Source of the DNA: an uncultured virus (IMG/VR IMGVR_UViG_3300035424_000203)
Lineage: Duplodnaviria > Heunggongvirae > Uroviricota > Caudoviricetes
IMG/VR virus record: IMGVR_UViG_3300035424_000203
Direction: 5' to 3' (one strand)
DNA length: 64,000 nucleotides
In this document: positions 2,973-57,990 of the stretch, one piece after another
How the letters are laid out: every line of letters begins with the position of its first letter
How positions within the stretch are numbered: position 1 is the first letter of the stretch
The notes under the pieces: model-generated
The model's database searches: none
What the model was told of the DNA's origin: nothing
What the model saw: only the letters and a program-made list of their open reading frames with translations
Translations under genes and position numbers: made by a program

Positions 2973-3152
2973 AAAGAAAACCTCCATAAAATGTATTTGA
3001 AGGATAGAATCCTTCATGAAATACAGTTTAAAAGAGGCTGACATGCCATATCAATATATACTAATGCAGACACTATATATAGTGGTGGCTCTCAAGCGTG
3101 ATAATACAGTAAATTTTAGTGGCTTCCAAGAGTGATAATAATCACTACCACA

Positions 3153-9284: not shown

Positions 9285-10667
9285 ATGAAAAAGGGAGAAA
9301 TATTGGAAGGAACGGTAGAACGGATAGAGTTTCCAAACAAAGGGATTGTAGTGTGCGAGGAAGGAAGCTGTGTAGTGAAAAATGCGTTGCCAGGGCAGCG
9401 GGTTTCTTTTAGGGTGAGCAAGGCAAGGAAAGGGAAAGCTGAAGGGAGGCTGTTAGAAGTGCTGGAAAAATCCCCCTTGGAGACGGGGAGTCCGTGTTCC
9501 TGTTTTGGGGGTTGCGGGGGATGTACTTACCTATCCCTTCGGTATGAGGAGCAGCTTAGAATCAAAGAAGAACAGGTGAAAAAGTTGTTGGAATCTGTGC
9601 TGTGGAAGCAGAAAAAAAAATATGTGTATGAAGGAATCAAGCCGAGCCCGATGCCGTATGAATATAGGAATAAGATGGAATTTACTTTTGGAGATGAGGA
9701 AAAAGACGGTCCTCTGGCTTTGGGGATGCATAAAAGGGGAAGCTTTTATGATATCGTGACAGTAGATGGATGCCGGATTGTGGACGGGGATTATCGGAAA
9801 ATCTTAAAGTGTGCGTTAGATTATTTTTCGGATAGAAAGGTAAGTTTTTTCCATAGGCTGCGGCATGAAGGGTATTTGCGGCATTTATTGGTGCGGAAGG
9901 CGGCAAAGACAGGGGAAATATTAATTGCACTAGTGACAACGACACAGGAAGAACATGATTTAGCGCCTTTCTCGGATGCATTGCTGCAATTGGAACTGGA
10001 GGGGAAAATTGTGGGTATCCTCCATACAAAAAATGACTCGAATGCTGACGTAGTGCAGAATGAAGGAACAGAAATATTGTACGGGCAGGATTATTTTTAT
10101 GATGAACTACTTGGGTTGAAATTCAGGATATCGGAGTTTTCCTTTTTCCAAACGAATACTTATGGTGCGGAAGTGCTTTACAAGACTGTGAAAGATTATA
10201 TTGGGCTCTCTGCCAGAAGCGATAAAAAGATGCAGACGGTTTTTGATTTGTACAGCGGTACAGGAACCATAGCCCAAATGATGTCGGATGTGGCGGGGAA
10301 AGTAATCGGTGTGGAAATTGTGGAGGAAGCCGTAGAAGCAGCGCGGAAAAATGCGGAAATGAATCGTTTGGATAACTGTGAATTTATTGCCGGGGATGTG
10401 CTGAAGGTAATAGATGAGATAGATGAAAAACCGGATTTTATTATATTAGACCCGCCAAGAGACGGTGTTCACCCGAAGGCTTTGAAGAAGATTATAGGCT
10501 ATGGGGTGGAACGGCTGATTTATATTTCTTGCAAACCTACCAGCCTTGTGAGGGATTTGGAGGTGTTTTTGGAGAATGGATATGAAGTGGAACGGGCGGC
10601 AGCGGTGGATCAGTTTCCTTGGACGGCGAATGTGGAAACTATTTGCTGTTTAAGCCGCATAAAATAA
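9285..10667 (+). CDS. rlmD: 23S rRNA m5U1939 methyltransferase
   Basis: TRAM N-terminus, Fe-S CxxxxxCGGC, SFFQTN, DLYSGTG, LDPPRDG, YISC and DQFPWTANVET. Confidence 0.95.
   Translation: MKKGEILEGTVERIEFPNKGIVVCEEGSCVVKNALPGQRVSFRVSKARKGKAEGRLLEVLEKSPLETGSPCSCFGGCGGCTYLSLRYEEQLRIKEEQVKKLLESVLWKQKKKYVYEGIKPSPMPYEYRNKMEFTFGDEEKDGPLALGMHKRGSFYDIVTVDGCRIVDGDYRKILKCALDYFSDRKVSFFHRLRHEGYLRHLLVRKAAKTGEILIALVTTTQEEHDLAPFSDALLQLELEGKIVGILHTKNDSNADVVQNEGTEILYGQDYFYDELLGLKFRISEFSFFQTNTYGAEVLYKTVKDYIGLSARSDKKMQTVFDLYSGTGTIAQMMSDVAGKVIGVEIVEEAVEAARKNAEMNRLDNCEFIAGDVLKVIDEIDEKPDFIILDPPRDGVHPKALKKIIGYGVERLIYISCKPTSLVRDLEVFLENGYEVERAAAVDQFPWTANVETICCLSRIK
10623..10636 (+). repeat. attL core
   Basis: acggcgaatgtgga, identical to 18485-18498. 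Confidence 0.85.
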
Positions 10668-10704
10668 GGGTTTTTAAGGCTTTAGAGGGTGTGAAAATAG
10701 GTGG

Positions 10705-10726
10705 TTTGCCACCGATTTGCCACCGT
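10705..10726 (+). promoter_or_regulatory. Putative integrase arm-binding sites
   Basis: tttgccaccg twice; the same motif is repeated at 18348-18377 near attR. Confidence 0.7.
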
Positions 10727-10755
10727 AATTCTGAAAAACTACCCAAAACGTTAAG

Positions 10756-10799
10756 AGAGGGCTGAACAGCGGTGAACTTCTGCTGTTCAGCCCTCTTTT
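10756..10799. terminator. Terminator between rlmD and the integrase
   Basis: agagggctgaacagc / gctgttcagccctct, a 15-bp perfect stem. Confidence 0.8.
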
Positions 10800-10805
10800 G
10801 GTATT

Positions 10806-12083
10806 CTATGAAGTTTTCCGGCCTGCTGCCTGTTCAAAGAGATCAACGGAACGTGCCGCCATGACTTCCGTATCATGTACATAGGTCTGCAAGGTGGTCT
10901 GGATGTTGGAGTGGCCCAGCCGGGCCTGTACGTCCTTCACGTCAGCGCCGGATTCGATCAGTACCGTGGCGTGGGTGTGCCGCAGGGAGTGGTAATCAAA
11001 GGCAAGCAGCAGTTCCTTGTGGATCACCCGGGCACAATACTTGAAAGAATCCGTGGAAGTGTATTCCCCGTTTTCCGCTATGCAGACCATACGGACACGA
11101 GGCAAGGCCGATTCAACGCACTTTTGGATAGGAACAATGCGCTGCATATCATTCCCTTTTTCGTCAACCTCTTTTTTCAGGACGTGGATTGTATAATATT
11201 CACTGTATTTCAGTTCGTTTTTCAGCTGGGCGGTGCGCTCTTGTTTTAATGCCTGATAGAGGGTATCGCCAAACTTTACGGTGCGCATGGAAGACGCTGT
11301 TTTGGTTGTGGTGAAGTACCATGAGGAACGCATTTCCTTTTTCCCGGTCTTTTCCACGGCCTTGCGGACATCAGCCCCGAAGTTCCGCTTCACAATCTGC
11401 TTGTTGACGGTCAAGGTCTTGTTTTCAAGGTCTATGTCATCCCATGTCAGGGCAAAGGCTTCGCTGATCCGCAGGCCCGTATAAAATCCGATCATCAGGG
11501 GGATGTGGTAACGGGAACCAGCCGGGAACTTGTCAATGATCTGCTGCCATTCTTCCAGCGTCAGGATGATCCTTTCACGGGGCTTCTTCTCCACTTTGGG
11601 ATATTTTACATAGCGCATAGGGTTAGCCGGAAGATAGTGGAGCGGTTCAACGGCATAGTCCAGCGCCGCACCGAACACGGAGAGGATCCCGGTTATAGAG
11701 TGCTTTGCCAGCCCGTCCATTTTCAGCTTGTTGGCGTATTCCTGTAATGTGGCAGCAGTGACGGCCTTTAAGCGGTACTGGCCGAACCGGGGCTTCAAAT
11801 GCCCTTCCATGATCCGCAGATAGCCCACTTGTGTATTGTATTTCAGGTTCGGCTTGCAGTACAGATCATACCACTGATCCAGATAGTCCGATACTGTGAC
11901 GTTGGAAGGTTCAAACAGCTGCCCCGCATTATTGTATTCATTGATTGCTTTGGCAAGTGCCGCTTCCGCTTCCTTTTTGGTCTTAAAGCCGCCTTTTTCC
12001 TTCTTCTGGCGTTTGCCGTTAATTGTACCGAGGTCAAAATAATAAGACCATGTTGCACCACGTTTTCTTGTTCCACCTGTCAT
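10806..12083 (-). CDS. int: Tyrosine integrase with Arm-binding N-terminal domain
   Basis: GGFKTKKEA, TGLRISE, HSLRHT, RLGHS and TLQTYVH. Confidence 0.95.
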   Translation of the reverse strand: MTGGTRKRGATWSYYFDLGTINGKRQKKEKGGFKTKKEAEAALAKAINEYNNAGQLFEPSNVTVSDYLDQWYDLYCKPNLKYNTQVGYLRIMEGHLKPRFGQYRLKAVTAATLQEYANKLKMDGLAKHSITGILSVFGAALDYAVEPLHYLPANPMRYVKYPKVEKKPRERIILTLEEWQQIIDKFPAGSRYHIPLMIGFYTGLRISEAFALTWDDIDLENKTLTVNKQIVKRNFGADVRKAVEKTGKKEMRSSWYFTTTKTASSMRTVKFGDTLYQALKQERTAQLKNELKYSEYYTIHVLKKEVDEKGNDMQRIVPIQKCVESALPRVRMVCIAENGEYTSTDSFKYCARVIHKELLLAFDYHSLRHTHATVLIESGADVKDVQARLGHSNIQTTLQTYVHDTEVMAARSVDLFEQAAGRKTS

Positions 12084-12142
12084 AATTTACACCATTCCTT
12101 TCCATTCTGGCCGTGCGGCGGCTGTGGAAGGAAAAGGGCAAG

Positions 12143-12583
12143 CTATTGATCATGCTTTTCATCATGCAGATAGTTAAAAATTCGTAAATAAATATTCTCT
12201 TTGGTAGTACTTTCTAAAAGATTCATTTCAGCAGAACTTATATATATTTTCTGCCCGGATTCCTTTATGGTGATTTCCCACTTATCATCATAAGGACTTT
12301 CATTTATTTCATATCCCAGCAGTTCGAGATAGTCAAAAAAATGTGTTGTTTTCTTTAGTTCTTCATCCCAACCCATAAGGTAAGATGGGGATACCTGAAA
12401 ATGATTTGCTATTTGTTTGATCATATCAGGTGTAGGTGTCCGCTTTCCGTTTTCCCAATTAAAGACTGCATTTTGTGAAACATTTAATTTTTCAGCAAGT
12501 TGCCGTTGTTTTAAATTATGGTCTATTCGTAATTGCCTTAATTTGTGTGCTAAATCTGACATTGCAATACACCCCCTTACCAA
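12143..12583 (-). CDS. XRE/CI-like HTH repressor
   Basis: LRQLRIDHNLKQRQLAEKLNVSQNAVFNWENG...YLMGW; the likely start is MSDLAHK. Confidence 0.9.
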   Translation of the reverse strand: MVRGCIAMSDLAHKLRQLRIDHNLKQRQLAEKLNVSQNAVFNWENGKRTPTPDMIKQIANHFQVSPSYLMGWDEELKKTTHFFDYLELLGYEINESPYDDKWEITIKESGQKIYISSAEMNLLESTTKENIYLRIFNYLHDEKHDQ

Positions 12584-12589
12584 AGAATG

Positions 12590-12678
12590 ATAGCAAATTG
12601 GTGTATAGAAAGCAATTTGTTATTGACAAATATAGCATAATGGTGTTAAAATGTCAAGTACAAACACCATTATGCTAT
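12590..12678. promoter_or_regulatory. Divergent promoter/operator switch
   Basis: TTGACA at 12623 and TGtTAAAAT at 12644. Perfect 16-bp inverted repeat atagcataatggtgtt (12632-12647) / aacaccattatgctat (12663-12678), with a variant at 12590. Confidence 0.75.
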
Positions 12679-12699
12679 TAAAGAAAGGTAGGTAAAAGT

Positions 12700-12897
12700 A
12701 TGAGAATAAGCAGGGATAAAATCAATATTTGCATGGCCAGAAAGAAAATGACTGTTCAGGCTCTTGCAAATGCTTACGGTGTGAGCCGGACAAGGATCAA
12801 TGTTTTACTAAATCAAAGAGAAGTGTCAACGGTATCGGCTGGAAGAATGGCTTCTGCACTTGGTGTGGATGTAACTGAAATTTTGGAAACCAATTAA
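12700..12897 (+). CDS. Cro-like HTH protein
   Basis: 65-aa HTH divergent from the repressor, ending ALGVDVTEILE. Confidence 0.85.
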   Translation: MRISRDKINICMARKKMTVQALANAYGVSRTRINVLLNQREVSTVSAGRMASALGVDVTEILETN

Positions 12898-12932
12898 ACA
12901 GCGGTGCGGCGGCTGTGGAAGGAAAAGGGAGT

Positions 12933-13074
12933 ATGGAAGATATTCTAACAAAAAATTATTGAGATCCAAAAGCTACAGTCAGAAATTGACCATAGAACCA
13001 GAATAGAACAGGAAGCGCTGATCTGCCAGTGTAGGTTTAGTGAAGCGGTGGAACTTCTGGCTACATTAGATTAG
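12933..13074 (+). pseudogene. Small gene frameshifted in an A6 run
   Basis: Removing one A from 12950-12955 gives the ORF MEDILTKIIEIQKLQSE...LLATLD*, which has an RBS. Confidence 0.55.
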
Positions 13075-13094
13075 AAAGAAGGTGGCGCAAAAAA

Positions 13095-14984
13095 ATGAAT
13101 GATTTATATAAAGGCTACATAAAAACCAAAAACAAACAGGCAGCCGAAAAGTTCAAGGACAGGACGGACTTCAAGACGCTGGAACAGGTGCAGTCACTCC
13201 CGGAGTATGCCGGGATCCTTGCAAAAAATACCATGTTCATAGACATTGACGATCCTGAACAGTCTGAAATACTGATGGATATTGTGGAAGAATTTCAGCT
13301 GAATTGCCGGGTGATCTGTACCCGCCGGGGGAAGCATTTCATTTTCAGGAACACGCAGCTTCACCAGTGCAAGACACATACACGCCTTGCCATAGGTCTG
13401 ACTGCTGATATTAAGGTGGGTTATGTTGCGTCTTATGAAGTCCTGAAAACGGATGGAGAAGAACGTTTTTGTGAATGGGATGTTGAGCCGGGCGTGGAAT
13501 ATCAGGAAGTTCCTAAGTGGCTTTTGCCCGTGGGGAAGATCAAGGCTGAATTTCTGGATATGGCGGCGGGTGACGGACGGAATCAGGAATTGTTTAATTA
13601 TATCTTACGCTTGCAGAGCAACGACTACAGCGTAGAGGAAACACGGGAAGCGATCCGCATTATTAACAGGTTCGTCCTGAAGGATCCGCTTTCCGATCAG
13701 GAGATAGAAACCATTTTGAGGGATGACGCTTTCAAAAAGCCTGTGTTTTTCAACGGTTCCACATTTCTATTCAACAAGTTTGCTGATTATATCAGGAATA
13801 CAGACCATATTATAAAAATCAGCGGAAAGCTACACATTTACCGGGAAGGAATTTATATTTCTGACACTGCTGCTATTTTTAAAGTAATGCGGTCATATAT
13901 ACCAGCTATCAGGAAAAACCAGAAAGCGGAAGTAATGGACTGTCTGAATGACAATGCAGAAGAAAAACAGCCGGCTGATGCCCGTTATGTTGCTTTCAAG
14001 AACGGTATATATGACGTGGTAACGGACACCATGCAGGACTTTTCACCGAACATAGTAATGACAAACAAGATCCCGTGGGATTACAATTCAGCGGCGTTCA
14101 GTGAACTGGCTGACCATACGCTGAACAGGCTGGCGTGTGACGATCCTGCGATCCGTTCCCTGCTTGAAGAATGTATTGGCTACTGCTTCTATAGATCGAA
14201 TGCGTATAAAAGTTCATTCATGTTAACAGGAGATAAGGACAACGGAAAAAGCACATTCCTTGATCTGGTCAAGGCTGTTTTGGGTGAGGATAATATATCA
14301 GCACTGGACGCTAAAGAACTGGGGGATCGCTTCACCACTTCAATGATGTTCGGGAAGCTGGCGAACATCGGTGACGATATATCGGATGACTTCATGCAGG
14401 GATCGCAGGTCAGCATTTTCAAAAAGATAGTGACCGGGAACCGTATCAAGGCAGAAAGGAAAGGTCAGGATCCGTTTGAGTTCAATCCGTATATAAAGCT
14501 GCTGTTTTCTGCTAATGACATACCACGGATGAAGGATAAGACCGGGGCTGTGTTGCGCCGTCTGGTCATTATCCCCTTCAATGCGCACTTTACCAGTGAT
14601 CTGCCAGATTATGATCCAGAGATAAAAAAGAAGCTGCTTCAAAGTGAATGTATGGAATATCTGATCAAGCTGGGAATTGAGGGGCTGAAACGCATCACAG
14701 AGAACAAAGGCTTTACAAGGTCAGAAGCAACGGAACAGGCGGCCCATGAATATGACCTTATGAATGATCCTATTAAGGCATTCTTTTCAGAGCGTGACGA
14801 AGGTTATCTTTTCCGGGAAACGGTAACGGATGTTTATGCCGCTTACAAAGTATATTGTAATGAATCCGGGATCAATCCTGAAACAAAAATCATGTTTGGT
14901 AAATCTGTAGCAGATATGTTTGGAGTGGAAACCTACCCTACACGCGTAGGCGGGCAGCAGGTCAGGCGGTATAGAAAAAAGTAG
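13095..14984 (+). CDS. P4-family primase-helicase (prim-pol plus D5-like SF3 helicase)
   Basis: FIDIDD and RRGKHFIF in the N-terminus; GDKDNGKST, NIGDD and LFSAN in the helicase domain. Confidence 0.9.
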   Translation: MNDLYKGYIKTKNKQAAEKFKDRTDFKTLEQVQSLPEYAGILAKNTMFIDIDDPEQSEILMDIVEEFQLNCRVICTRRGKHFIFRNTQLHQCKTHTRLAIGLTADIKVGYVASYEVLKTDGEERFCEWDVEPGVEYQEVPKWLLPVGKIKAEFLDMAAGDGRNQELFNYILRLQSNDYSVEETREAIRIINRFVLKDPLSDQEIETILRDDAFKKPVFFNGSTFLFNKFADYIRNTDHIIKISGKLHIYREGIYISDTAAIFKVMRSYIPAIRKNQKAEVMDCLNDNAEEKQPADARYVAFKNGIYDVVTDTMQDFSPNIVMTNKIPWDYNSAAFSELADHTLNRLACDDPAIRSLLEECIGYCFYRSNAYKSSFMLTGDKDNGKSTFLDLVKAVLGEDNISALDAKELGDRFTTSMMFGKLANIGDDISDDFMQGSQVSIFKKIVTGNRIKAERKGQDPFEFNPYIKLLFSANDIPRMKDKTGAVLRRLVIIPFNAHFTSDLPDYDPEIKKKLLQSECMEYLIKLGIEGLKRITENKGFTRSEATEQAAHEYDLMNDPIKAFFSERDEGYLFRETVTDVYAAYKVYCNESGINPETKIMFGKSVADMFGVETYPTRVGGQQVRRYRKK

Positions 14985-28696: not shown

Positions 28697-29272
28697 ATGA
28701 AAGGTATCGATCTTAAAAATATGAAGCCGTTGACAGCAGAAGAAAAGGCATTCAGCGCCGATATGGGAAACTATAATCAGTTTTTTAAGTACATGAAGAT
28801 AAACAAGTTAGACCAGGAAGAATGGTATGATATTTTGATTCTGCATTATTTAAGGGCAGTTAAGAAATATCTTAATATCCCACATTTACAGCAATATGAA
28901 TTTTCAACAATCCTTTTTAGAACGCTGGATAATGCGAGGATAAACTACTTTAGAGATATGAACAGAGAAAAAAGAATGCCATCGGGCGGTATAGTATCCC
29001 TTGATTGGGAAGAAGATTCTCTGAATGAAAAACGCACTGCACCTATGACATGGATTGATTTAAAACAGTCTGTAGAAAAAACTGTTATGTACCATGAAAT
29101 GATATCGGAAATACTTTCAAACTTGAATGATGTTCAAGCTGAAATTTTCAAAATGACAATGGAAGAATACAATCGTGAAGAAATTAAAAGGTATCTTGGA
29201 ATAAAAAAGGGTACATTTTGCAAACGGATGAGGGAAATTAAGCATGTAGTAATTGACTACCTCTCAATGTAG
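28697..29272 (+). CDS. Sigma-70-like (ECF-size) factor
   Basis: Region-2-like YLRAVKKY and a region-4 HTH at the C-terminus. Confidence 0.65.
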   Translation: MKGIDLKNMKPLTAEEKAFSADMGNYNQFFKYMKINKLDQEEWYDILILHYLRAVKKYLNIPHLQQYEFSTILFRTLDNARINYFRDMNREKRMPSGGIVSLDWEEDSLNEKRTAPMTWIDLKQSVEKTVMYHEMISEILSNLNDVQAEIFKMTMEEYNREEIKRYLGIKKGTFCKRMREIKHVVIDYLSM

Positions 29273-29285
29273 GGAGGTAGTCACA

Positions 29286-29843
29286 GTGGAAAATAAACAG
29301 ATTAGACCGCTTACACCAACGGAAAGGCAATATGCAACGGAAAATTATCACCTAATCAGTAAGTTTTTGAAACTGTCAAAACTGGATGCGGAAGAATTTT
29401 TTGATATTGTAGTTTTCGATTTTCTATTGAGTGTGGAAATTTACTTGAATAATGAAGCGTTGCGGGAAAAATGCAACTTTGAAGCCGTCTCCTATATGTA
29501 TATGAAACGTGCGGTATATAGGCATTTTAGGGAACAGAAAGCGCAAAAAAGAAGTTCTGAATGCGGTGCGGATATTAGCTTTAATGAGATAGATGCCTAT
29601 ATAGGGCAATCAATCAGCGGAATGGAAAATCTTTCATCATTGGAATATGACGAAACCATTAAACAGATAGAAAGCATTTTGACAGCAGAGCAACAGCGGA
29701 TTTTCTTTGATAAGCTACAAGGCTATACACTCAAAGAAATAGCGGAAAATAGTGGAATAAAGCCCAAAAGGGTATATAAACAGTTTGGAAGAATCAAAAA
29801 TGTTGTAGCTGATGTGATGGAGAGTCAGCGGTTATATGGATAA
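29286..29843 (+). CDS. Sigma-70-like (ECF-size) factor
   Basis: GTG start after ggagg; LTPTERQYATENYHLI...GYTLKEIAENSGI; paralog of the upstream gene. Confidence 0.7.
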   Translation: MENKQIRPLTPTERQYATENYHLISKFLKLSKLDAEEFFDIVVFDFLLSVEIYLNNEALREKCNFEAVSYMYMKRAVYRHFREQKAQKRSSECGADISFNEIDAYIGQSISGMENLSSLEYDETIKQIESILTAEQQRIFFDKLQGYTLKEIAENSGIKPKRVYKQFGRIKNVVADVMESQRLYG

Positions 29844-32714: not shown

Positions 32715-32927
32715 TCCATTCTTTATCTATGTACATCTATATGATACCTTCCAAACGGAAAATATACAATATTTACTCTGAAAATTCAGCAAATTATTTT
32801 TTAAATAAAGGGTCAATTTTGTTGAAAAAAAGGGTATTTATTAGTAGGTGGAAATATTAAAATTCAACAAAGTTGAAAAGAAACCTAAAAATAAAAATTC
32901 GACAAAGTTGAAACGGAGGTTGTTAAT

Positions 32928-33803
32928 ATGTACGATTTGGAAAAATTTGAGAAGTCCATGATAGAAGAAGGGATTGCCGATGGAACAATTCACACTTACA
33001 TCTGCCATATAAAGGAGTATTTTGATTGGCTGTTAGGAAGTGGTGAGGTGGAATTTAAGCGTTTGTATAGACAGAACATTCTTGAATATATTTCATATTT
33101 GAAAAATATAAAGAAGACAGATTATAAAACAGGTGAAAATCATCCGTTGAGTGGAAAGACAATCAATCTGAAATTAGTATCTATTGCAAAGTACAATCGA
33201 ATTATGCAGCCGGACGAAATTGTTATTAAGAAGAAGGACTATATAAAAATACATGAAAATTTAGTCAATCCTACGGATATAACGAAGGAAGAAGTAAATA
33301 CATTCCGGCAGAAACTACTACAATCTGAAGGTTGCTCCAATGTACGCAATTACACTATCGCAACGCTGATAGCATATTCAGGACTTAGAATATCGGAGGT
33401 GTTGGATTTAAAGTTACAAGACATTTCCTATCAAACATATGTGATCTTAGTTAGGAATGGCAAAGGTGGAAAACAGAGAAGCGTTATTGTAAATAGCAAG
33501 GTCATCAATGCCATAAGAGAATATGTGAAAATCAGAAAGCCTGAGATTGAAAGTGAATATCTCTTTTGCAATAAGCAAGGAAAGAAATTGAACAGGTCAA
33601 CTATCAATATTGCTTTTGCTTCGGTTAGTGACAGGATTACACCACATACATTAAGACATTTTTATTGTAGTAATGCTATGGAAAGCGGATTATTTACGAT
33701 ACAAGAGATAGCGGCACAAGCTGGACACTCTTCTTTGAATACCACTATGAAGTATGTGCATCCAAACTTGGAAAAGATAAAAGAAAAAGCGGAATTATTG
33801 TAA
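32928..33803 (+). CDS. XerC/D-like tyrosine recombinase
   Basis: SGLRISE, GKGGKQR, HTLRH, AGHSS and TMKYVH. Confidence 0.92.
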   Translation: MYDLEKFEKSMIEEGIADGTIHTYICHIKEYFDWLLGSGEVEFKRLYRQNILEYISYLKNIKKTDYKTGENHPLSGKTINLKLVSIAKYNRIMQPDEIVIKKKDYIKIHENLVNPTDITKEEVNTFRQKLLQSEGCSNVRNYTIATLIAYSGLRISEVLDLKLQDISYQTYVILVRNGKGGKQRSVIVNSKVINAIREYVKIRKPEIESEYLFCNKQGKKLNRSTINIAFASVSDRITPHTLRHFYCSNAMESGLFTIQEIAAQAGHSSLNTTMKYVHPNLEKIKEKAELL

Positions 33804-33883
33804 AATTTTTATCATAAGTGGGGGAAAATCATTTCTAAAAAGGGTATTTAGTATATAGAAGCACATGAAAAGGAAGTGAATCA

Positions 33884-41252: not shown

Positions 41253-41538
41253 CAGATAAAAAGAACTATAACAGATTATCAAGAAGAACTATATTTGGTG
41301 AGAAATTTTTAATAAAATACAGTATATGAATATTGGACTGAGGTTAATTCACGAAAAGATGTATATAACAACAAAAATAGAATACCAATTTCATAACCTG
41401 CTATCATGCATAAACATGGTAGCAGCCTTTATTAGACAAAACATGATAAATTTTCTAAATCCAATATATTTAAATACTCTTGATCATATATGCGAATTGA
41501 GATATAATATGACTATAATAAAAAATGGAGGAAAACAG

Positions 41539-41820
41539 ATGGAAGCAATCAGGCCGTCTTCAGATTTAAGAAATCATTATAATGAAATATCCAGGCAATG
41601 CCATGAGGAAAGGAATCCTGTTATCATTACGGTAAATGGGCGTGGTGATACCGCTATATTGGGGTTGCAGGATTATTATCAAATGAAATCAGAACTTGAA
41701 TTGCTGCGTACACTGGCAGAAGCGGAAGAAGATGTTGTGAATGGCAGAGTAGCACCAATGCAAAGTACATTTGATGATATACGCAAGTCGCTTTTAGAGG
41801 GGAAATCTAATGAAGTATAA
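41539..41820 (+). CDS. Phd/YefM antitoxin
   Basis: IRPSSDLRNHYNEIS...PVIITVNGRG; the start is set by RBS ggagg. Confidence 0.9.
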   Translation: MEAIRPSSDLRNHYNEISRQCHEERNPVIITVNGRGDTAILGLQDYYQMKSELELLRTLAEAEEDVVNGRVAPMQSTFDDIRKSLLEGKSNEV

Positions 41821-42121
41821 AATTACCAGGACAGATAAAGCGGATGAACAGCTAAGGGATATCATATTTTATATCGCAGAGGATTCCGGGAGCATAGACA
41901 TTGCGTTGAATTACCTGGACAAGGTTGAGGCCGCAATCAGTCGCTTAGAAGAATTCCCAATGTCTGGCAATAAGCCAAGGTATTCTATTTTGCGAAAGCA
42001 GGGTTATAGAGTTCTTATTGTAGAGAGACATCTAGTATTTTATAAAATTAATGAGGACAAAAAAGAGGTTATTATATATGCGGTTGTGGATAGCAGGCGG
42101 GAATACAGGAATTTGATATAG
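41810..42121 (+). CDS. RelE/ParE toxin
   Basis: ADEQLRDIIFYIA...LEEFPMSG...GYRVLIVERHLVFYKI. Confidence 0.9.
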   Translation: MKYKITRTDKADEQLRDIIFYIAEDSGSIDIALNYLDKVEAAISRLEEFPMSGNKPRYSILRKQGYRVLIVERHLVFYKINEDKKEVIIYAVVDSRREYRNLI

Positions 42122-42321: not shown

Positions 42322-42847
42322 TGTTTCCAATGAAACACAAAAAGACCCATCCTCAAACGGTGCGGGAACACCATCGGACAGGTCTTCATACATACACACA
42401 AATTCAATGCCTGAAAGGCTAGAATTTGAATAGCAGAAACGCTATTGAATTAATTATACACAATCTATAAGCAATTTCAAGCGTTTCTGCAATTAATCCC
42501 ATTAGCAGTTTGGAAAATATTTAGAGAATTTTGGTAACTGCATAGAAAAGATGTGAATTTTATTATTTATAGAAGTAGAAAGAAATAATTAATTTTCTTT
42601 TTAAGTGGGGAAAAGTCCATTTAAAAAGGGTATTTATATTTGAAAGAGAAAATTAATGCGATTTAGAGAAGTAAATATTAGGAGGGATGCTTATTGAGAG
42701 AGTGTAGGGCTGAAATAGCCTGATATTTTTTAGATTTTAGTGAACTGGCTTTTACCAATAAAAATAAATGTTGATAACAAGAAAGGTTCATTAAGATACA
42801 AATAATTTACAAGTTGCATGTAGAAATATTACAGGAAGGAGAAGCGG

Positions 42848-43105
42848 ATGGAATTAACGAGAGTGGATTATATAATCATGAAATATCTTAAAAAGAAAGG
42901 AAGTACTACATATTTTGAAAGTATGACACTGAAGGAAATAATGAGTGCAATAAAGATATCAAGACCAACATTGTATCGAAAAATGGTCAATTTACAAGAA
43001 CATGGTTATGTAGGGAAAGGCTGTAAATCAACAAATGCGGATACATTCTTTTTATCTGCAAAAGGTATTCAAATCATAGAAAATGGAGGGATGGCTAATG
43101 ATTAA
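42848..43105 (+). CDS. Winged-helix protein (TubR-like by position)
   Basis: MTLKEIMSAIKISRPTLYRKMVNLQEHGYVGKG; overlaps the start of the tubulin-like gene. Confidence 0.7.
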   Translation: MELTRVDYIIMKYLKKKGSTTYFESMTLKEIMSAIKISRPTLYRKMVNLQEHGYVGKGCKSTNADTFFLSAKGIQIIENGGMAND

Positions 43106-44165
43106 GAAAGATGTGTTTGTAGTAGGTATTGGTTTAGGTGGCAGTAGGGTAGGGTGTGATTTCCAACAGAAAAATTATGATTCATATCTTATCAATGGTT
43201 CACTTCAGGATAACAAAACACTTCCAGATGCAAAAAATATGTTGGTATTGGAGGGATATGATGGATTGGCAGGGGACAGAAGCCTTGCTTTTGAAGCGCT
43301 TAAAAACAATAAGGATATTTTGCAGAAAGTAATGGGTATTGAAGAAAAGGTTATTCTGCTTGTTGCTACTGGTGGTGGAACTACAGGAAGCGGATGCATT
43401 ACTCATTTGGCTAATATCATTTGTGGGAAATTACCAGATAAGATAGTGTGTGCGTGCCTTATGATGCCAAGGTCAGATGAACCTATTCAAAAAAGACTAA
43501 ATGCCTATAATGCAGCAAAGGAATTAATGGAGATTCCAGAAATGGGCGCACTGATATTTATAAGTAATGAAGCATGTGATTCAGAGTTAAATAAAATCAA
43601 TTACAATCTGGTAAACATGTTGGACGCATTTTTTACGGATGATTCATCATCCAATGTCTCTAACTTTGATGATTCAGAGAAGTTGAAAATGTTGTCAGAT
43701 CATGGTGCTTTTGTAATTGCTATGCGCTCAGGCAAAACAGATCCACAAGATATAAGTAAAATTAGAAAGGTATCTACACAGGATATGGTGAATGCCTTGA
43801 CTGCAAAGAATATTTTTCTTCCTATCAATAATGATGGCATTGTTGCCCATATAGGGATCATTAACCAGAAGGACAACCATATTGAGGAAAAGGAAATTGT
43901 GACAGCAATAGGGATACCTGAAAATATATTCACTGGCAATAACGGTAATGTAAATATTGTTTGTGCGTCAGGCTTGGGATTCCCAACAGAATATATCGCT
44001 AAAATGGGAAAGAAAGCGATTGAAGAACAGAAACAACGCCTTGAAAAGAAAAAATCATCCAGTATTCTTGATGACTTAGAAGAGTTAGAGAATGAACTTC
44101 CGGAACAAAAGCCGGTAAGCAAACGCAGGGAGATAAGTTTTGATTTGTTGCGTGAACTGGATTAG
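43098..44165 (+). CDS. Tubulin/FtsZ-family GTPase (TubZ/PhuZ-like)
   Basis: VVGIGLGGSRV, GGGTTGSG signature loop, NFDDSE T7-like loop and a charged C-terminal tail. Confidence 0.85.
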   Translation: MIKKDVFVVGIGLGGSRVGCDFQQKNYDSYLINGSLQDNKTLPDAKNMLVLEGYDGLAGDRSLAFEALKNNKDILQKVMGIEEKVILLVATGGGTTGSGCITHLANIICGKLPDKIVCACLMMPRSDEPIQKRLNAYNAAKELMEIPEMGALIFISNEACDSELNKINYNLVNMLDAFFTDDSSSNVSNFDDSEKLKMLSDHGAFVIAMRSGKTDPQDISKIRKVSTQDMVNALTAKNIFLPINNDGIVAHIGIINQKDNHIEEKEIVTAIGIPENIFTGNNGNVNIVCASGLGFPTEYIAKMGKKAIEEQKQRLEKKKSSSILDDLEELENELPEQKPVSKRREISFDLLRELD

Positions 44166-52031: not shown

Positions 52032-52383
52032 GGTCAAAGCGGGGGATAAATGCTGAAAATATGCGATTTATTCCCCTAAAATGCCTAAAAACAGGCATTT
52101 GCGGAGGGTGTTTTGCCAATGAAATAACCATTTCAATAAGTGGTAGTTTGAGTATGATTTTTAATAGAAGTTTACACAAAAATGCAGAAGAAATAAATGG
52201 AATGTAAAAAGGCTATTACATAATAATTCCAATATTGATACAAGAAATTACGTTGCTTATTACATGGATAAAGTTTTTATAAAAATTTTTCCTATAAATG
52301 GGGAAAATGAAATAGAAAATGTGTATTTATTATTGGAGCATATAATAAGCAATGACTAAAAGCGACTAAAGAAAGGCGATTCA

Positions 52384-55300
52384 ATGAATAATGAAAATGT
52401 TTTAAAAGCAAAAAAAGAAGGATTTGTACCTGTACAGTATAGGATTATCAATCTTACATCTGATGAGATTGTCAATAGTGTCACAATTAATGGAACTATG
52501 ACAGTATATAAAGAAGATGGAAAATCTTATGAAAGAAAAGCAGAAATACATAAGGTTACACCATATACTATAGATGAATTGAAAGAAAAAAATATGCTGA
52601 TTACGGTTGCAGATGATATTTTGTTCTATGAGATTAGGAAACTAAAAGGATTAAACGACACAACTAAAACACCAAATCAACAACAATATGACGCATATTT
52701 AGAAGTTAAGAAAATGCGAAATAATATTAAAGAGATGAAGAGGGCAGATGAACCAGATATTGAATCTATTCTAAAAGAAACAAAAAGATTAGATAAATAT
52801 TTGTTTGTTAAAGATGTAATCAGTGTTGAGAATCGTTCTGGAGATTATAAAAAATTTGGCGTAAAAGGATTTTATTATGGTGATGTATTATATACAAGAA
52901 ATTCTGCATCCAGTAGTAATTTAAAGGGCAATACAGTACAGTTTGTTAGAGATGATTTGAATATAAAGTTACAGCCGATACTACAAGCAGGACACAAGGA
53001 CATTTCACAAGAAGCATTAGTTGTTCCTGAAAAGTATGGGGCATATATGGGTTTATCAACAACAGGAGTAACATTTGTTAGTAGTCCTAGAGTATGTGTA
53101 ATTCCAGATTTTGAGCATTTGACTTTTGATGATGAAGTATATTTTGTTACTAAAAAAGGTGAGATTATAAAAAAAGAAGCTATAAATACTGTTGAATATT
53201 CAATAGAAATGCGGAAATTCAAAGATACTGGTAATGATGGTGAAACAGTATATATGAATAGCTTTGATGGGATGGGATTAGTTGATCCGACATTTTTAAA
53301 AATGAAATGGCAGCAGGAATTACATTTATCTTATACCCCTTCAGCCTTAAATATGAGAAGTAAAAGCGTAAAGGGATTATTAGTGACATTTCCTTTTAAA
53401 GAACTTGCACAGGAATTAGGAAGAGAGTACACAACTGATATATTAGGACAAAAAATGCGGATTAAAGACATTGATGTATTTTTAACAATAAGTCAATGGA
53501 AAAACCATTCATTGTATGATGATGATTTTAGAATTTATGAGCGAAATATAGATAATGTTATTTGGGGAGTACAACGTGTTTCACCCAAAAGAGATAAAGA
53601 TAATGTTAAACTGAATTATCAGGCAGAACAAACGAGCAATATTCAATCGGATACTGATATAGAAAGACTTTGTGATCCGACTGGGAAATATTTTGAACAG
53701 ATGGCAGAGGGTAATGATGCGGTAGTTCTTTTTAGTTTAATGAATGACATTATTATATCCAATGAAGACAATATGGAAATTGAATGTGTAGAAAATGTGA
53801 CAGAGAGCGAGGAAGACTTTTGGAGCAGTGTTGATACAACGCCATTTAATAAAGCACTGCTGAAAAATCTCGATTTACTACAAGATACATATGTCAGAGG
53901 ACAAATAAAAAAGAATTTGGAATTTGCTTTTAAGCAAGCTAAAGTAGGGAAATTGTATACGGCGCATAATTCAAATTATCAATTTATGATTTCTGATCCA
54001 TATGCTTTAGCACAATGGGCTATATTGCGAGATGAAATAGCAGATGAAAATGGTAACTATCCAACATCTCCCATGAGGAATGGAAAGGATAAATTTTATT
54101 TTGGATTGATTAAGCCATATCATATTTATAGTAAATATTGGTTAGATAAGAAAGTTGAAAAGGTGGATGCGTGTAGAAGCCCAATGACGGACATAGGAGA
54201 ACATAATCTTCTTACTATATCTAATAATGAAAACACAGATAATGATGCTTTTGAGAAAATGAAAAAGTATTATAGGTATATTTATAGTGGAATCATTTAT
54301 AGCGTACATGATATTTCAACGGTAATACACAGTGATTCAGATTGGGATAGTGATTGTGTATTAACAACGGATTTTGATGTGTTGATTGATTGTAGATGGG
54401 ATGTGCCGCCTGTTATGTATGAAAAAGGCTTATCCAAAATGGATAAGAGAGTATATAATGTTAAAACGGCGGTTGAATCTGATTTGAAAGGATTTGGAAA
54501 CAAAGTAGGCGTGTATTCTAATATGAGTACAAATTATTTTGCAATGCTTCCCATGTTTAAAGATGCTGAAAGGGTAAAGATTATCAATCAAATTAAGAAA
54601 TTGCGTTTTATAATTGGAGAAGAAATTGACAGTACAAAAACAGGAAAAAAGCCAGATATATCAATGGATTTCATATATCAATCTGAAACCAAAGATATGA
54701 GCATGGAAGAAAGAGAAAGTGTAAAAGAACATAATAGATTTACACCAGAGTTTCCAGCTTATTTTTGTAGGTATTTAGATGAAAAGAAAGATCGTCTTTT
54801 TCAAAAGTATTATAAAATATGTAGCCTTATATGCCAAAAAGAAACATTTATGACTATGGAAAAGTTCTTGGATAAAGCACAAAACGGTGATTTGGAAAAC
54901 GAAAGCGAAAAAGATTTCCTTCGTTTCTTCTTAGATAATAGTCCATTACTATTAACAGATTGTACCATGAATAAGGTTTGTTGGTACTTTGAAAAGTTGG
55001 AGAAAGAATTAAAGGGGAAATTTAAAATAAAAGATGATAACTATATTCTTTTATCCTATGCTGATGAAGTGGAAGTTGATAAAAAATCCAAGAATATAAT
55101 TAACAAAACATTTTCATATTATAGAGACATGATACATGAAATATGGAATGAAGCTAGATATGGAAATAATTGTTACAATACGGATAAAAAGAAAACATAT
55201 GTAATTAGTAAAAGAGAACAGCTTATTAAAAATTGTAGAAAGGACTTAGAAAAAATAGAAGTAAATCCTATTAAACTATTTAATATTATTGTTTCCGTTC

Positions 55301-55476
55301 TAAGAGAGCAAAAAAATCTTGAAAGCGTAAATAAATTTATCTGGAATATATTTGATGAAGATATTGTAGATATTATTCCAGAGGGTAAAAGAAAAATCAG
55401 TATGTTTGAAGTGCAAGATGGTGATATGGAAATTTTAGGACGTAGATTTAAAGTTATCGAGGAGGAAATAATATAG
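52384..55476 (+). CDS. YonO-like single-subunit two-barrel RNA polymerase
   Basis: 1030 aa; FDGMGLV, KGLLVTF, CRSP, catalytic-like HSDSDWDSD, VGVYSN and EIDSTKTG. Confidence 0.8.
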   Translation: MNNENVLKAKKEGFVPVQYRIINLTSDEIVNSVTINGTMTVYKEDGKSYERKAEIHKVTPYTIDELKEKNMLITVADDILFYEIRKLKGLNDTTKTPNQQQYDAYLEVKKMRNNIKEMKRADEPDIESILKETKRLDKYLFVKDVISVENRSGDYKKFGVKGFYYGDVLYTRNSASSSNLKGNTVQFVRDDLNIKLQPILQAGHKDISQEALVVPEKYGAYMGLSTTGVTFVSSPRVCVIPDFEHLTFDDEVYFVTKKGEIIKKEAINTVEYSIEMRKFKDTGNDGETVYMNSFDGMGLVDPTFLKMKWQQELHLSYTPSALNMRSKSVKGLLVTFPFKELAQELGREYTTDILGQKMRIKDIDVFLTISQWKNHSLYDDDFRIYERNIDNVIWGVQRVSPKRDKDNVKLNYQAEQTSNIQSDTDIERLCDPTGKYFEQMAEGNDAVVLFSLMNDIIISNEDNMEIECVENVTESEEDFWSSVDTTPFNKALLKNLDLLQDTYVRGQIKKNLEFAFKQAKVGKLYTAHNSNYQFMISDPYALAQWAILRDEIADENGNYPTSPMRNGKDKFYFGLIKPYHIYSKYWLDKKVEKVDACRSPMTDIGEHNLLTISNNENTDNDAFEKMKKYYRYIYSGIIYSVHDISTVIHSDSDWDSDCVLTTDFDVLIDCRWDVPPVMYEKGLSKMDKRVYNVKTAVESDLKGFGNKVGVYSNMSTNYFAMLPMFKDAERVKIINQIKKLRFIIGEEIDSTKTGKKPDISMDFIYQSETKDMSMEERESVKEHNRFTPEFPAYFCRYLDEKKDRLFQKYYKICSLICQKETFMTMEKFLDKAQNGDLENESEKDFLRFFLDNSPLLLTDCTMNKVCWYFEKLEKELKGKFKIKDDNYILLSYADEVEVDKKSKNIINKTFSYYRDMIHEIWNEARYGNNCYNTDKKKTYVISKREQLIKNCRKDLEKIEVNPIKLFNIIVSVLREQKNLESVNKFIWNIFDEDIVDIIPEGKRKISMFEVQDGDMEILGRRFKVIEEEII

Positions 55477-56360
55477 TGGCGAGTAATTATAAGATTAATT
55501 GGCAGGACAAGTATCTTTGTGATACTATCCTTGCCAATAAAGATAATTTGGACGAAAATAGATTGAAATATGAGCGTAATTTTTGGACGGCATTATTAGT
55601 CAAACATTATATTGTATATGATTTATGCAATGGATCAACAGACATTTTAAAATTAAATGAAGTATTGGAAAAGCATAAAAAGGAAATAACAGCAAAAGCC
55701 AAAGAATATGTTAATGATGATTCAAGAGTAGAAAGTATAATTAAGGGGATAAAGAAGAATATAGACGATTTAAAAGATACAGATAAAGAAAATAAAAGGG
55801 TATTCTTTGCTGATAAACCAGTTGTGATTTATAGAAGTGAAATAGACACTATTCAACAAATCGGGAAAGATTTTACATATAATTCACAATTTGGGAAAAG
55901 ACCAAGAGAAATTTTACAGAAAATTATTTCTGTATTGCTTATATGGCAAAAAGCATATCAAAATCAATATGAAACAAAGCAAGAATATGTTCCTGTTATT
56001 GAAGAAAAGATTAATAATTCAAAGATTTTTTCTGATAATGGTAGCGAGAGTGGAACAAGAATAAAAAATTACCAGACACTTCTAGAAAGTGGATTAATAG
56101 AATATTACAGACCAGAGATAGAATATAGAAAAAGAAAGAAAAATCCAATTTATCTGTACAAAATTCCATTTATAAGTTATAATGAAAATGGTACAGATGA
56201 AATTGTTCTAGTTATTAATAAGTTTGAATTGCTGTGCGAACAGATGTTCAGCGGATTTAATGATAAGTTGTTTGTAAACGAATGTCAGAAGTGCGGGAAA
56301 ATGTTTGTAGCGAGACGAAAAAGCACAAAAAACTGTGATATTTGTAATAGACACTATTAA
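55476..56360 (+). CDS. Protein with a C-terminal zinc ribbon, coupled to the RNAP gene
   Basis: CQKCGK...CDIC; its GTG overlaps the RNAP stop. Confidence 0.75.
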   Translation: MASNYKINWQDKYLCDTILANKDNLDENRLKYERNFWTALLVKHYIVYDLCNGSTDILKLNEVLEKHKKEITAKAKEYVNDDSRVESIIKGIKKNIDDLKDTDKENKRVFFADKPVVIYRSEIDTIQQIGKDFTYNSQFGKRPREILQKIISVLLIWQKAYQNQYETKQEYVPVIEEKINNSKIFSDNGSESGTRIKNYQTLLESGLIEYYRPEIEYRKRKKNPIYLYKIPFISYNENGTDEIVLVINKFELLCEQMFSGFNDKLFVNECQKCGKMFVARRKSTKNCDICNRHY

Positions 56361-56718
56361 ATTGGTTATAATTCACATAAAATTTTGAAGAAAATTATAT
56401 AGATTGTACATATACAAAATGAAATAAATGTGTTATGATTAAAAGTTTCGCAAAAGTCTTTTTAATACCCCTTATAAAATAGGGGTTTTTGTCGTGTGCT
56501 TATCCAAGTTATTATATGGTATATAAAATGTTTTATTATGGCTATATATAAGTTGTGGAGACTGTATGTAGTGTTATATATGGTTTGTGGAGACTATATA
56601 TAAGTGGTAGCATGGTTTAACATTGCAACTATGCCAACTTCATAGTTGTTAATATATATCGTAATAGCACTTACGGTTGAATATCTCGTAGGTGCTATTT
56701 TTGTGGAAGGAGTTTTAA

Positions 56719-56991: not shown

Positions 56992-57990
56992 TTGAAGAAA
57001 AAGGATACTGTATTAAGATATAGAAATATATCAATTTACCGTAGGGAAGTATTAGAGAAGGTAAACATTAAAAGTGTAGAATGTTTGCAAGCATATTTAA
57101 AAAATCTGACATTGGGGAATTTAAAACCTGAAACGATAGAGAATAATATTGCGACAATTATCAGGTGGCTTGAATATATTTATGAAGAATTGGATGATAA
57201 ATGTATTCTTGATATGACGATAGAAGATATAGAAGAATATGCGTATTATTTAAAATCCAAAAGAGATAATAGACCTCAAACAATTTCAAGAGTTTTGGCA
57301 GTTATCGAAGATATATATAATTATCTTTTGAAAAAGGAAATGGTTAAAAGTAATCCAGTTTCTTATGTAAAACGTCTAAAAGATATAAGACGAGAATACG
57401 AAGTTAAACGGATATTTTTAACAGAAGAACAGGTTGAAAATTTAAAATTGAAATTAGAGGAATACGGAGATATACAATTACAAACTTATATAAACTTTGC
57501 TCTTTCAACAGCGGCTAGAGCCAATGCGTGTGCAACACTCAAATGGGAACAAATTAATTTTGATAAGCGCATGGCAACGGATGTTATGGAAAAGAAATCA
57601 AAGTTGGTTACATTGTTTTTCAATGAGTATACAAAAAGTCTGCTTTTAAAATTACAAGATTATAGAAAAGAAAAACATATAAATGATGGTGGTTTTGTAT
57701 TTATCTCCAATAAATATAGATATTATGAAGATACAGGTGAAAAAACACATATAAGTTCTTCGACATTAGGGAAATGGGCGAACAGAGCAGGTGAAATGAT
57801 AGATGTTCCTGATTTGTCACCACATGACCTAAGAAGAACTGCTGCCAATTTATTATTACAAAGAGGTGGTGATATTGGAGTTGTTTCACTACTTTTAAAC
57901 CATGAAAATATTTCTACAACCTTTAAATACTATATCAATAAATCACAAAACGAGTATTTAAAAGAATACAAAGATAAGTTCGACTTTTAA
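56992..57990 (+). CDS. Tyrosine recombinase (SPbeta YomM-like position)
   Basis: STAARANA, PHDLRR, LLNHE and FKYY. Confidence 0.85.
   Translation: MKKKDTVLRYRNISIYRREVLEKVNIKSVECLQAYLKNLTLGNLKPETIENNIATIIRWLEYIYEELDDKCILDMTIEDIEEYAYYLKSKRDNRPQTISRVLAVIEDIYNYLLKKEMVKSNPVSYVKRLKDIRREYEVKRIFLTEEQVENLKLKLEEYGDIQLQTYINFALSTAARANACATLKWEQINFDKRMATDVMEKKSKLVTLFFNEYTKSLLLKLQDYRKEKHINDGGFVFISNKYRYYEDTGEKTHISSSTLGKWANRAGEMIDVPDLSPHDLRRTAANLLLQRGGDIGVVSLLLNHENISTTFKYYINKSQNEYLKEYKDKFDF

Follow-up and report, generated by a model that had tools for sequence, protein, structure and literature searches.

A contig of an uncultured tailed virus (IMG/VR record IMGVR_UViG_3300035424_000203), analysed here as a window of 64,000 nucleotides (nt), carries on its plus strand two abutting genes, one for a YonO-like RNA polymerase of 1030 residues and one for a partner protein of 294 residues (the coordinates of these and other features are collected in Table 1). 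The first open reading frame (ORF) begins with ATG and the second with GTG, and the last G of the polymerase stop codon TAG (55474-55476) doubles as the first base of the partner GTG, leaving an overlap of 1 nt. A preliminary description, made from the letters of the DNA, had proposed just such a polymerase with an overlapping CxxC-containing gene, and both ORFs lie where it had put them. The 3' end of the polymerase gene contains a Shine-Dalgarno sequence for the partner gene, and a hairpin resembling an intrinsic terminator follows the pair. The stop/start overlap, the internal Shine-Dalgarno sequence and the hairpin together indicate a compact, translationally coupled unit. One further locus, on a contig labelled as an uncultured Lachnospiraceae metagenome-assembled genome, is 98% identical and too close to inform on conservation.

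The assignment of the larger protein as YonO-like is borne out by several kinds of comparison. The polymerase matches phrog_8308 (E 6e-57), and 37 phage records are matched in tblastn searches. Among them are the yonO gene of SPbeta-like phages and, from Enterocloster, Thomasclavelia and Psychrobacillus phages, genes named 'RNA-dependent RNA polymerase'. SPbeta YonO aligns with residues 161-713 at 23% identity (BLASTP E 1e-14) and matches the profile of the window polymerase family at E 8e-76, a family in which an E cut-off of 1e-3 retains 3429 representatives and one of 1e-30 retains 1249. No Pfam match is found for the window polymerase at E up to 0.1, PF05183 (RNA-dependent RNA polymerase) included, while PF05183 is a precomputed match in 28 of 51 homologues from a large protein collection; the missing match reflects the reach of the Pfam model, not the fold. 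Searching the PDB with the sequence returns chance matches alone (E above 0.1), and searching it with the family profile returns weak matches to RDR2 (E 7e-4). An AlphaFold2 (AF2) model was built on an alignment of the window polymerase with 42 of the 51 homologues (alignment A1, 43 rows, nine near-redundant rows left out) and scored 84.3 in the predicted local distance difference test (pLDDT), with a predicted template modelling score (pTM) of 0.83. Foldseek places this model closest to QDE-1 (5fsw_A, E 6.7e-15) and plant RDR2 (7roz, E 9e-15; RDR2 entries range from 9e-15 to 2.6e-13), followed by phage P74 gp62, P32 gp64 and the virion RNA polymerase of the crAss-like phage phi14:2, whereas cellular beta-prime subunits appear at E above 0.06 only. 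At the level of prediction, and judged by the overall QDE-1-like fold, the double-psi beta-barrel fold expected of a YonO-like enzyme is thus present. The protein is almost certainly a YonO/QDE-1-type two-barrel RNA polymerase and adds one more member to an established family.

It is conceivable that this enzyme is an RNA-dependent RNA polymerase that makes double-stranded or antisense RNA and does not transcribe phage DNA. PF05183 matches more than two dozen homologues as noted, relatives bear the corresponding name in phage records, and the nearest solved folds are those of QDE-1 and RDR2 (overall E 7e-15 to 3e-13 over about 950 aligned columns), which share a DbDGD-type loop with the window polymerase. 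QDE-1 and RDR2 are about 12% identical to it, act on RNA templates in silencing and, to our knowledge, have no winged-helix/zinc-ribbon partner. Against an RNA template, the 'RNA-dependent' labels are automatic Pfam transfers, the gene resides in a double-stranded DNA tailed prophage with structural genes adjoining, and YonO, the sole family member tested, is DNA-dependent and transcribes late genes (PMC5467207). An RNA template is very improbable on these grounds.

The preliminary description had also singled out the catalytic loop, in which it saw the three aspartates of the DxDxD metal motif kept and the near-invariant Gly of DxDGD replaced by Ser. The loop context, HSDSDWDSD, permits two DxDxD registers, and the alternative DSDWD, which BLASTP places opposite the DNDGD of YonO by a two-residue shift, was overruled by the 43-row alignment favouring DWDSD. 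In that alignment D653, D655 and D657 fall on the family metal triad and Ser656 occupies the usual Gly position; both the kept aspartates and the substitution hold. The description of the Gly as near-invariant does not, and DWDSD is no striking departure within the family. Position 656 is Gly in 24, Ser in 14, Tyr in 2 and Phe in 2 of 42 rows of alignment A1, with one row truncated. We also took the 150 best representatives at 50% identity, 134 of which cover the loop, and among these the residue is Gly in 93, Ser in 11, Tyr in 11, Phe in 9, Leu in 4, Met in 2, Thr in 2, and Lys and Ala in 1 each, so that 41 of 134 carry something other than Gly. On a FastTree tree of 181 sequences, computed with the loop columns excluded, the fewest changes that account for the distribution are 28 between Gly and non-Gly and 13 between Ser and any other residue. 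All three triad aspartates are kept in 133 of the 134 loop-covering representatives (of the 150, D653 is Asp in 148 and gapped in 2, D655 is Asp in 134 and gapped in 16, and D657 is Asp in 133, gapped in 16 and Asn in 1). The residues D295 (147/150), K330 (149/150), K373, R598 and P600 (each 150/150) are all present in the window polymerase. They fit the invariant set of two-barrel RNAPs, in which the first barrel contributes one Asp and two Lys and an Arg-x-Pro precedes the triad, and from this pattern they would be the counterparts of Rpb1/Rpb2 residues.

Could Ser656 disable the loop, or alter metal use, and leave an inactive or altered enzyme? The loop Gly is conserved in cellular RNA polymerases (RNAPs) and in QDE-1, where the loop reads DYDGD (PMC2919709), and the DxDxD triad is essential in YonO (PMC5467207). 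However, the eight invariant residues of two-barrel RNAPs are listed in PMC2919709 without the loop Gly, and DWDSD is kept in all 7 rows of the clade of the window polymerase, in full-length ORFs that are 81-98% identical. Given the frequency of non-Gly residues in the family, the recurrence of the change (at least 28 times between Gly and non-Gly), the clade-wide retention of DWDSD and the intact state of the other catalytic residues, a disabled or altered enzyme is scarcely credible. As far as sequence comparison tells, Ser656 is a tolerated, recurrent and ordinary variant in the family, and the enzyme with DWDSD is very probably active. The substitution matters only as a sign that the 'universal' metal-loop Gly is dispensable in this lineage.

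The partner protein was modelled on a 37-row alignment (A2; pLDDT 79.3, pTM 0.78) and is predicted to consist of a helical N-domain of about 110 residues (approximately 10-100), a winged helix (approximately 116-235) and, with four cysteines, a small module of beta structure. These cysteines, C270, C273, C287 and C290, are invariant in 37 of 37 aligned partners, the pattern by which we define the family ribbon is CxxC-x(11-14)-CxxC, and in most members the ribbon bears a basic tail suited to nucleic-acid contact. A word-based homologue search with the window partner finds close relatives alone (at least 62% identity), and pairwise phmmer comparison with 35 partners from other loci yields one match (L060). 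In BFVD the whole partner resembles proteins of uncultured siphoviruses (245-261 residues, E 1.5e-8 to 3.7e-7) that carry assorted automatic names, and the nearest Atlas clusters (247-256 residues, score 0.95) are mostly viral and unnamed. We found no description of the partner in the literature on YonO, SPbeta and two-barrel phage RNA polymerases.

Foldseek reports nothing for the partner in the PDB at E up to 1e-3, its best match being Fur at E 0.07. VIA-align of the central domain gives Z scores of 7.6 for Fur, 7.5 for the ORC2 winged helix, 6.9 for a Pol III subunit and 6.8 for TFIIE-alpha, and archaeal TFE (1q1h) reaches 6.7 with a root-mean-square deviation of 2.8 over 84 aligned residues, tied with many unrelated winged helices; at these levels, all below 8, only the generic fold is established. 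Since the top matches are of the Fur/PerR type, it is possible that the partner is a free-standing DNA-binding regulator of the late operon, or of the polymerase gene, that combines a winged helix with structural zinc as Fur and PerR do and does not bind the polymerase at all. Two direct repeats of GTGGAGACTRTAT just past the terminator could then be its operator sites. However, fusions to the polymerase, a control-passing predicted complex and the joint loss of the docking segment, all described below, favour physical association, and we hold a free-standing regulator to be distinctly improbable.

The partner gene accompanies the polymerase gene across the family. We examined 80 viral contigs (the best 80 of 196 polymerase relatives), most of which carry an overlapping downstream ORF of 230-275 residues ending in CxxC...CxxC. 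With the A2 profile a partner homologue is detected in 74 of the 80 loci: on the same strand, 56 have it within 200 nt downstream and 3 have it farther downstream, at a distance of 227-707 nt, and 15 have it on the opposite strand (about 2.6 kb upstream in L034, the only such locus for which the position was converted). Where the partner lies downstream, its overlap with the polymerase gene is usually a few nt. No homologue is detected in the other 6 loci; in 2 of these the contig stops within 800 nt of the polymerase, and another 2 are missing the upstream stretch in which the partner is retained in their clade. We define the partner family by genes of about 210-300 residues next to YonO-type polymerase genes, and phrog_30716 is matched by 21 of the 37 aligned members. 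Among named phages, the pair is carried by Bacillus phage BUCT082, a Spbetavirus, with a 924-residue polymerase (DFDYD) and an overlapping 278-residue partner (E 2e-65 to the partner profile), and by Enterocloster phage PMBT24, with an 831-residue polymerase (DFDGD) and a 240-residue partner (E 5e-17). Both partners are annotated as hypothetical only. The two polymerases are 24-28% identical to that of the window and, unlike in the window, an HU-like gene lies 3' of the pair in both phages.

Several loci show other arrangements. In the clade of L002-L005, whose polymerase is 41% identical to that of the window, the partner homologue lies inside a downstream frame of about 480-500 codons (about 9308-10828), and the partner of Thomasclavelia phage TR-TP1 (L088:3798-4427) has 209 residues and is without a zinc ribbon. 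In L089 (MT835481) and in 17 of the 80 loci (for example L022, L033, L040 and L058), the polymerase gene is divided between two ORFs. In L089 the break falls within the catalytic codons, the first ORF ending in ...SDADFD and the second beginning with M-GDISL, and the insert of about 940 nt (2094-3032) encodes a NUMOD4 and HNH_3 homing endonuclease. This insert probably represents a mobile intron that targets the best-conserved site; the Rfam group I intron model scores it at 14 bits against a threshold of 50.

Natural fusions link the two proteins more directly. In P0140 (1173 residues) the polymerase (2-914) is joined to a whole partner (920-1169; E 9e-32). P0140 occurs on 5 contigs and a second fused member of 1176 residues on 1 contig, which makes a sequencing error unlikely. 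The zinc-ribbon-only profile does not match P0140, though the whole-partner profile does. YonO itself offers a variant of this theme. It is a homologous, prophage-encoded single-chain two-barrel polymerase with the same Asp triad and, like the window polymerase, is encoded just upstream of a late or structural region, but it is shorter (839 versus 1030 residues), has DNDGD in place of DWDSD and lacks a separate partner: the partner profile finds none across the 134 kb SPbeta genome, its sole match being the 3' end of yonO. Residues 798-836 of YonO form CxxC-x13-CxxC with a basic tail and match the zinc-ribbon-only partner profile (25.8 bits, E 2e-6 in a 4154-sequence set), ranking right after 53 entries that are each a partner ORF or a homologue. 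In addition, the last 75 residues of YonO match the BUCT082 partner (BLASTP E 6e-7, 40% identity over 48 residues), and YonO 742-796 can be aligned to the very C-terminal end of the BUCT082 polymerase. In Psychrobacillus phage Perkons, the polymerase (857 residues, with an HU gene directly 3') matches the zinc-ribbon-only profile at 811-849 (31.6 bits, E 5e-10). YonO and Perkons thus have no separate partner and instead carry a partner-type zinc ribbon fused to the polymerase C-terminus. The main text of PMC5467207 makes no mention of zinc, a ribbon, cysteine or the C-terminal region, although its supplementary alignments could show the YonO cysteines, and zinc goes unmentioned in PMC2919709.

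The preliminary description had suggested co-folding of the two proteins as a check. Guided by P0140, in which the C-terminus of the polymerase is joined to the partner, we predicted a complex of polymerase residues 405-1030 with the whole partner, using our own alignments (A1 and A2). The predicted complex scores 0.63 (0.63, 0.63 and 0.73 in individual runs), while the best of 3 controls reaches 0.05. Of solved complexes, 116 of 157 attain that mark, as do 2 of 215 mismatched pairs, although these counts apply only roughly here because our own alignments were used. At least 81% of contacts recur between runs, with a partner pLDDT of at least 82, and as PDB searches return no similar complex, the prediction is unlikely to be a copy of a known structure. 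The confident predicted contacts connect polymerase residues 767-769, 790, 805-824 and 848-854 with partner residues 174-226, that is, with helix 192-204 and the wing. The interface residues on the polymerase correspond to positions 682-765 of the family profile. YonO matches this profile at 30-681 and 810-913 only (682-809 are missing) and Perkons has the same gap, whereas the polymerases of BUCT082, PMBT24 and TR-TP1, which have winged-helix partners, keep the segment. The two polymerases without a winged-helix partner therefore also lack the predicted docking segment, which supports the interface independently of the model. In the conserved adjacency, the natural fusions and the control-passing predicted complex, the proposal that the CxxC gene encodes a coupled subunit finds support, and it is quite likely that the partner physically associates with the polymerase.

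At which step such a partner would act is a separate matter. It is possible that it binds the polymerase but acts after initiation, be it in elongation, processivity, termination, antitermination or as an aid to folding and assembly. Linkage, fusions and predicted complex bear on association only, not on the step of action, and the predicted contact uses helix 192-204 and the wing, the usual DNA-reading surface, leaving less of it for a promoter. Moreover, elongation and cleavage factors that act on cellular RNAPs can contain zinc ribbons. However, the basic tail on the ribbon of most members suits nucleic-acid contact, YonO alone is already highly processive, and the question that YonO leaves unanswered is promoter recognition (PMC5467207). 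A purely post-initiation role appears unlikely for these reasons, and the odds that the partner serves in initiation or specificity seem close to even.

Archaeal TFE and eukaryotic TFIIE-alpha invite comparison in that they are RNAP-bound factors in which an extended winged helix is followed by a zinc ribbon, as in the partner. The TFE structure 1q1h covers 84 of 85 residues at 18% identity in the alignment described above (Z 6.7). Unlike these factors, the partner has an extra helical N-domain of about 110 residues, and it has no Pfam TFIIE match. With all Z scores below 8, the resemblance is a lead and not a sign of homology. Among non-canonical phage RNAPs, AR9 non-virion RNAP (nvRNAP) has a promoter-specificity subunit, gp226, to which the partner may be likened in idea, a small phage protein conferring promoter recognition on a divergent two-barrel RNAP. 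Enzymes of this kind are multi-subunit and beta/beta-prime-like, unlike the window polymerase, and no similarity of such subunits to the partner was seen, though no search aimed at it was made.

On balance, the gene pair probably encodes a phage RNA polymerase of two subunits that serves the late genes, with initiation as the most likely step at which the partner acts. Computation supplies the homology, the fold, the retained catalytic residues, the gene linkage, the fusions and the predicted interface; the DNA template, the late-gene role and the part played in initiation are inferred. Several observations weigh against this reading. Purified YonO elongates without any partner (PMC5467207), hence the partner is not needed for catalysis. 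The window partner matches neither Pfam nor PHROG, phrog_30716 included, and although the profile of the 35 other-locus partners matches it colinearly over residues 29-292, this match has 34 bits alongside 23 bits of composition bias and is seen only with filters off, the default bias filter of HMMER removing it. The winged helix, as noted, is established as a generic fold only. The linkage count of 74 of 80 is partly circular, as 35 of the 80 loci supplied rows to the profile and many are near-duplicates, although no such dependence on the profile applies to the matches in L002-L005 and to those on the opposite strand. The ribbonless partner of TR-TP1 and the 15 opposite-strand loci indicate that coupling is not universal. 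Finally, the co-loss of the docking segment concerns two sequences, YonO and Perkons, and maybe one evolutionary event, and, since the polymerase was truncated for co-folding, other parts of the full-length enzyme could mask the docking surface.

The surroundings of the gene pair are those of a phage. The pair lies within a low-GC region (approximately 30-35%), the start of which, near 18-20 kb, is marked by a drop in GC from about 45% to about 32%. Sigma-like proteins, HNH endonucleases, recombinases, a TubZ-like protein and a tape-measure protein are also encoded there. A 31-nt motif, GGGGAAAA-N9-AAAAnGnGTATTTA, occurs in 4 copies against 0.02 expected, all on the plus strand and all in gaps 5' of genes, one of them in front of the polymerase gene. 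From its distribution it may be a phage-specific (middle) promoter for the polymerase-partner pair. Two overlapping sigma-factor-like genes are encoded further upstream, and the phage may run a cascade from host RNAP to phage sigma factors to its own RNAP. Just 3' of the terminator, GTGGAGACTRTAT occurs twice without mismatch at a spacing of 32 nt, 5' of a small ORF resembling a helix-turn-helix protein, a tyrosine recombinase gene and the tape-measure gene. As a late-promoter motif GTGGAGACTRTAT was rejected, with only 2 exact copies and looser matches at chance level.

The remaining neighbours are diverse. A gene located two genes 5' of the polymerase encodes a GHKL ATPase fused to a Toprim domain of the Topo VI-A/Spo11 type. 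Tubulins of the TubZ type, one of which is encoded in the low-GC region, serve partition in plasmid-like prophages. The same region has two tyrosine recombinase genes, of which the second comes after the polymerase unit and before the tape-measure gene, and an antitoxin-like gene overlaps a toxin-like one. The higher-GC left part of the window harbours a third integrase and a primase and looks like a separate small integrated element.

Table 1. Positions of the polymerase-partner unit, associated motifs and neighbouring features in the 64,000-nt window (aa, amino acids).
Feature	Position	Strand	Basis and remarks
Polymerase gene, 1030 aa; almost certainly a single-chain two-barrel RNA polymerase of YonO/QDE-1 type	52384-55476	+	phrog_8308, YonO BLASTP, AF2, Foldseek
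Metal-binding loop codons D653-W-D655-S656-D657	54340-54354	+	alignment columns
Polymerase helical segment 767-854, predicted dock for partner winged helix	54682-54945	+	co-fold interface
Shine-Dalgarno sequence GAGGAGG for partner gene	55459-55465	+	within polymerase gene end; read from sequence
Partner gene, 294 aa; predicted helical N-domain, winged helix, C-terminal Cys4 zinc ribbon	55476-56360	+	AF2 pLDDT 79.3; partner profile
Partner winged-helix domain (predicted), residues 116-235	55821-56180	+	VIA-align matches
Partner zinc ribbon CxxC-x13-CxxC, residues 270-290	56283-56345	+	Cys invariant in 37 rows
Intrinsic-terminator-like hairpin and T run	56467-56492	+	6-7 bp stem with 3-4 GC pairs, then TTTTTGT; closes two-gene unit
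GGGGAAAA-N9-AAAAnGnGTATTTA, candidate promoter of the pair	52299-52329	+	about 55 nt 5' of polymerase start
GGGGAAAA-N9-AAAAnGnGTATTTA, other copies	32810-32840, 33820-33850, 42606-42636	+	alignment of the four copies
GTGGAGACTRTAT, two exact copies	56555-56567, 56587-56599	+	
Third integrase and D5_N/DUF5906 primase	10806-14984		higher-GC part
Sigma-factor-like genes, overlapping	28697-29272, 29253-29843	+	phrog_351 and phrog_1740; second matches Sigma70_ECF, E 7e-7
Tyrosine recombinases	32928-33803, 56992-57990	+	
Antitoxin-like/toxin-like pair, overlapping	41326-42121	+	phrog_2268; phrog_2455 and phrog_5232
TubZ-like tubulin	43083-44165	+	Tubulin, E 8e-9; TubZ_C_3, E 4e-5
GHKL ATPase-Toprim fusion, 811 aa	48857-51292	+	HATPase_c, E 1e-7; Topo VI-A/Spo11 Toprim, E 3e-10; no PHROG match
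Tape-measure-like ORF, >1975 aa	58074-63998	+	phrog_4211, E 7e-48; runs off window

How might the two-subunit enzyme operate? Host RNA polymerase, perhaps with the two phage sigma-like proteins, would transcribe the polymerase-partner unit with the 31-nt motif serving as promoter, and coupled translation would yield polymerase and partner together. RNA would be polymerised by a two-metal mechanism relying on D653/D655/D657 in the second barrel and on D295/K330/K373 in the first, with the participation of R598 and P600. The winged helix of the partner would dock on the helical segment 767-854 of the polymerase C-terminal domain, and the Cys4 zinc ribbon would constitute its second functional module. 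By analogy with SPbeta YonO, the enzyme would be DNA-dependent and transcribe the late (structural) genes of the phage, and the partner would serve to recognise promoters or to open the DNA.

The SPbeta late genes are transcribed by YonO, a DNA-dependent RNAP, and the main text of the report on it leaves open whether a factor is needed for this (PMC5467207). Its start site on the SPbeta late operon lies just downstream of its own gene, and promoter recognition occurs by no known means as far as these accounts go (PMC5467207; PMC8270828). Perhaps YonO-type polymerases were ancestrally two-subunit enzymes, in which a catalytic chain was assisted by a winged-helix/zinc-ribbon factor for promoter recognition or DNA opening, in the manner of TFE/TFIIE or sigma. 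The single-peptide YonO would then be the derived form, having lost the winged helix along with the docking segment and kept the ribbon as a fusion that underlies promoter specificity. We offer this scenario tentatively, and it could well prove wrong. YonO serves as a model of a minimal RNA polymerase related to the cellular enzymes, and the partner that accompanies most of its family is a concrete and cheaply testable candidate for its missing promoter-finding factor. If confirmed, the pair would represent a compact, two-protein orthogonal transcription system and the partner a new winged-helix/zinc-ribbon initiation factor outside archaea and eukaryotes.

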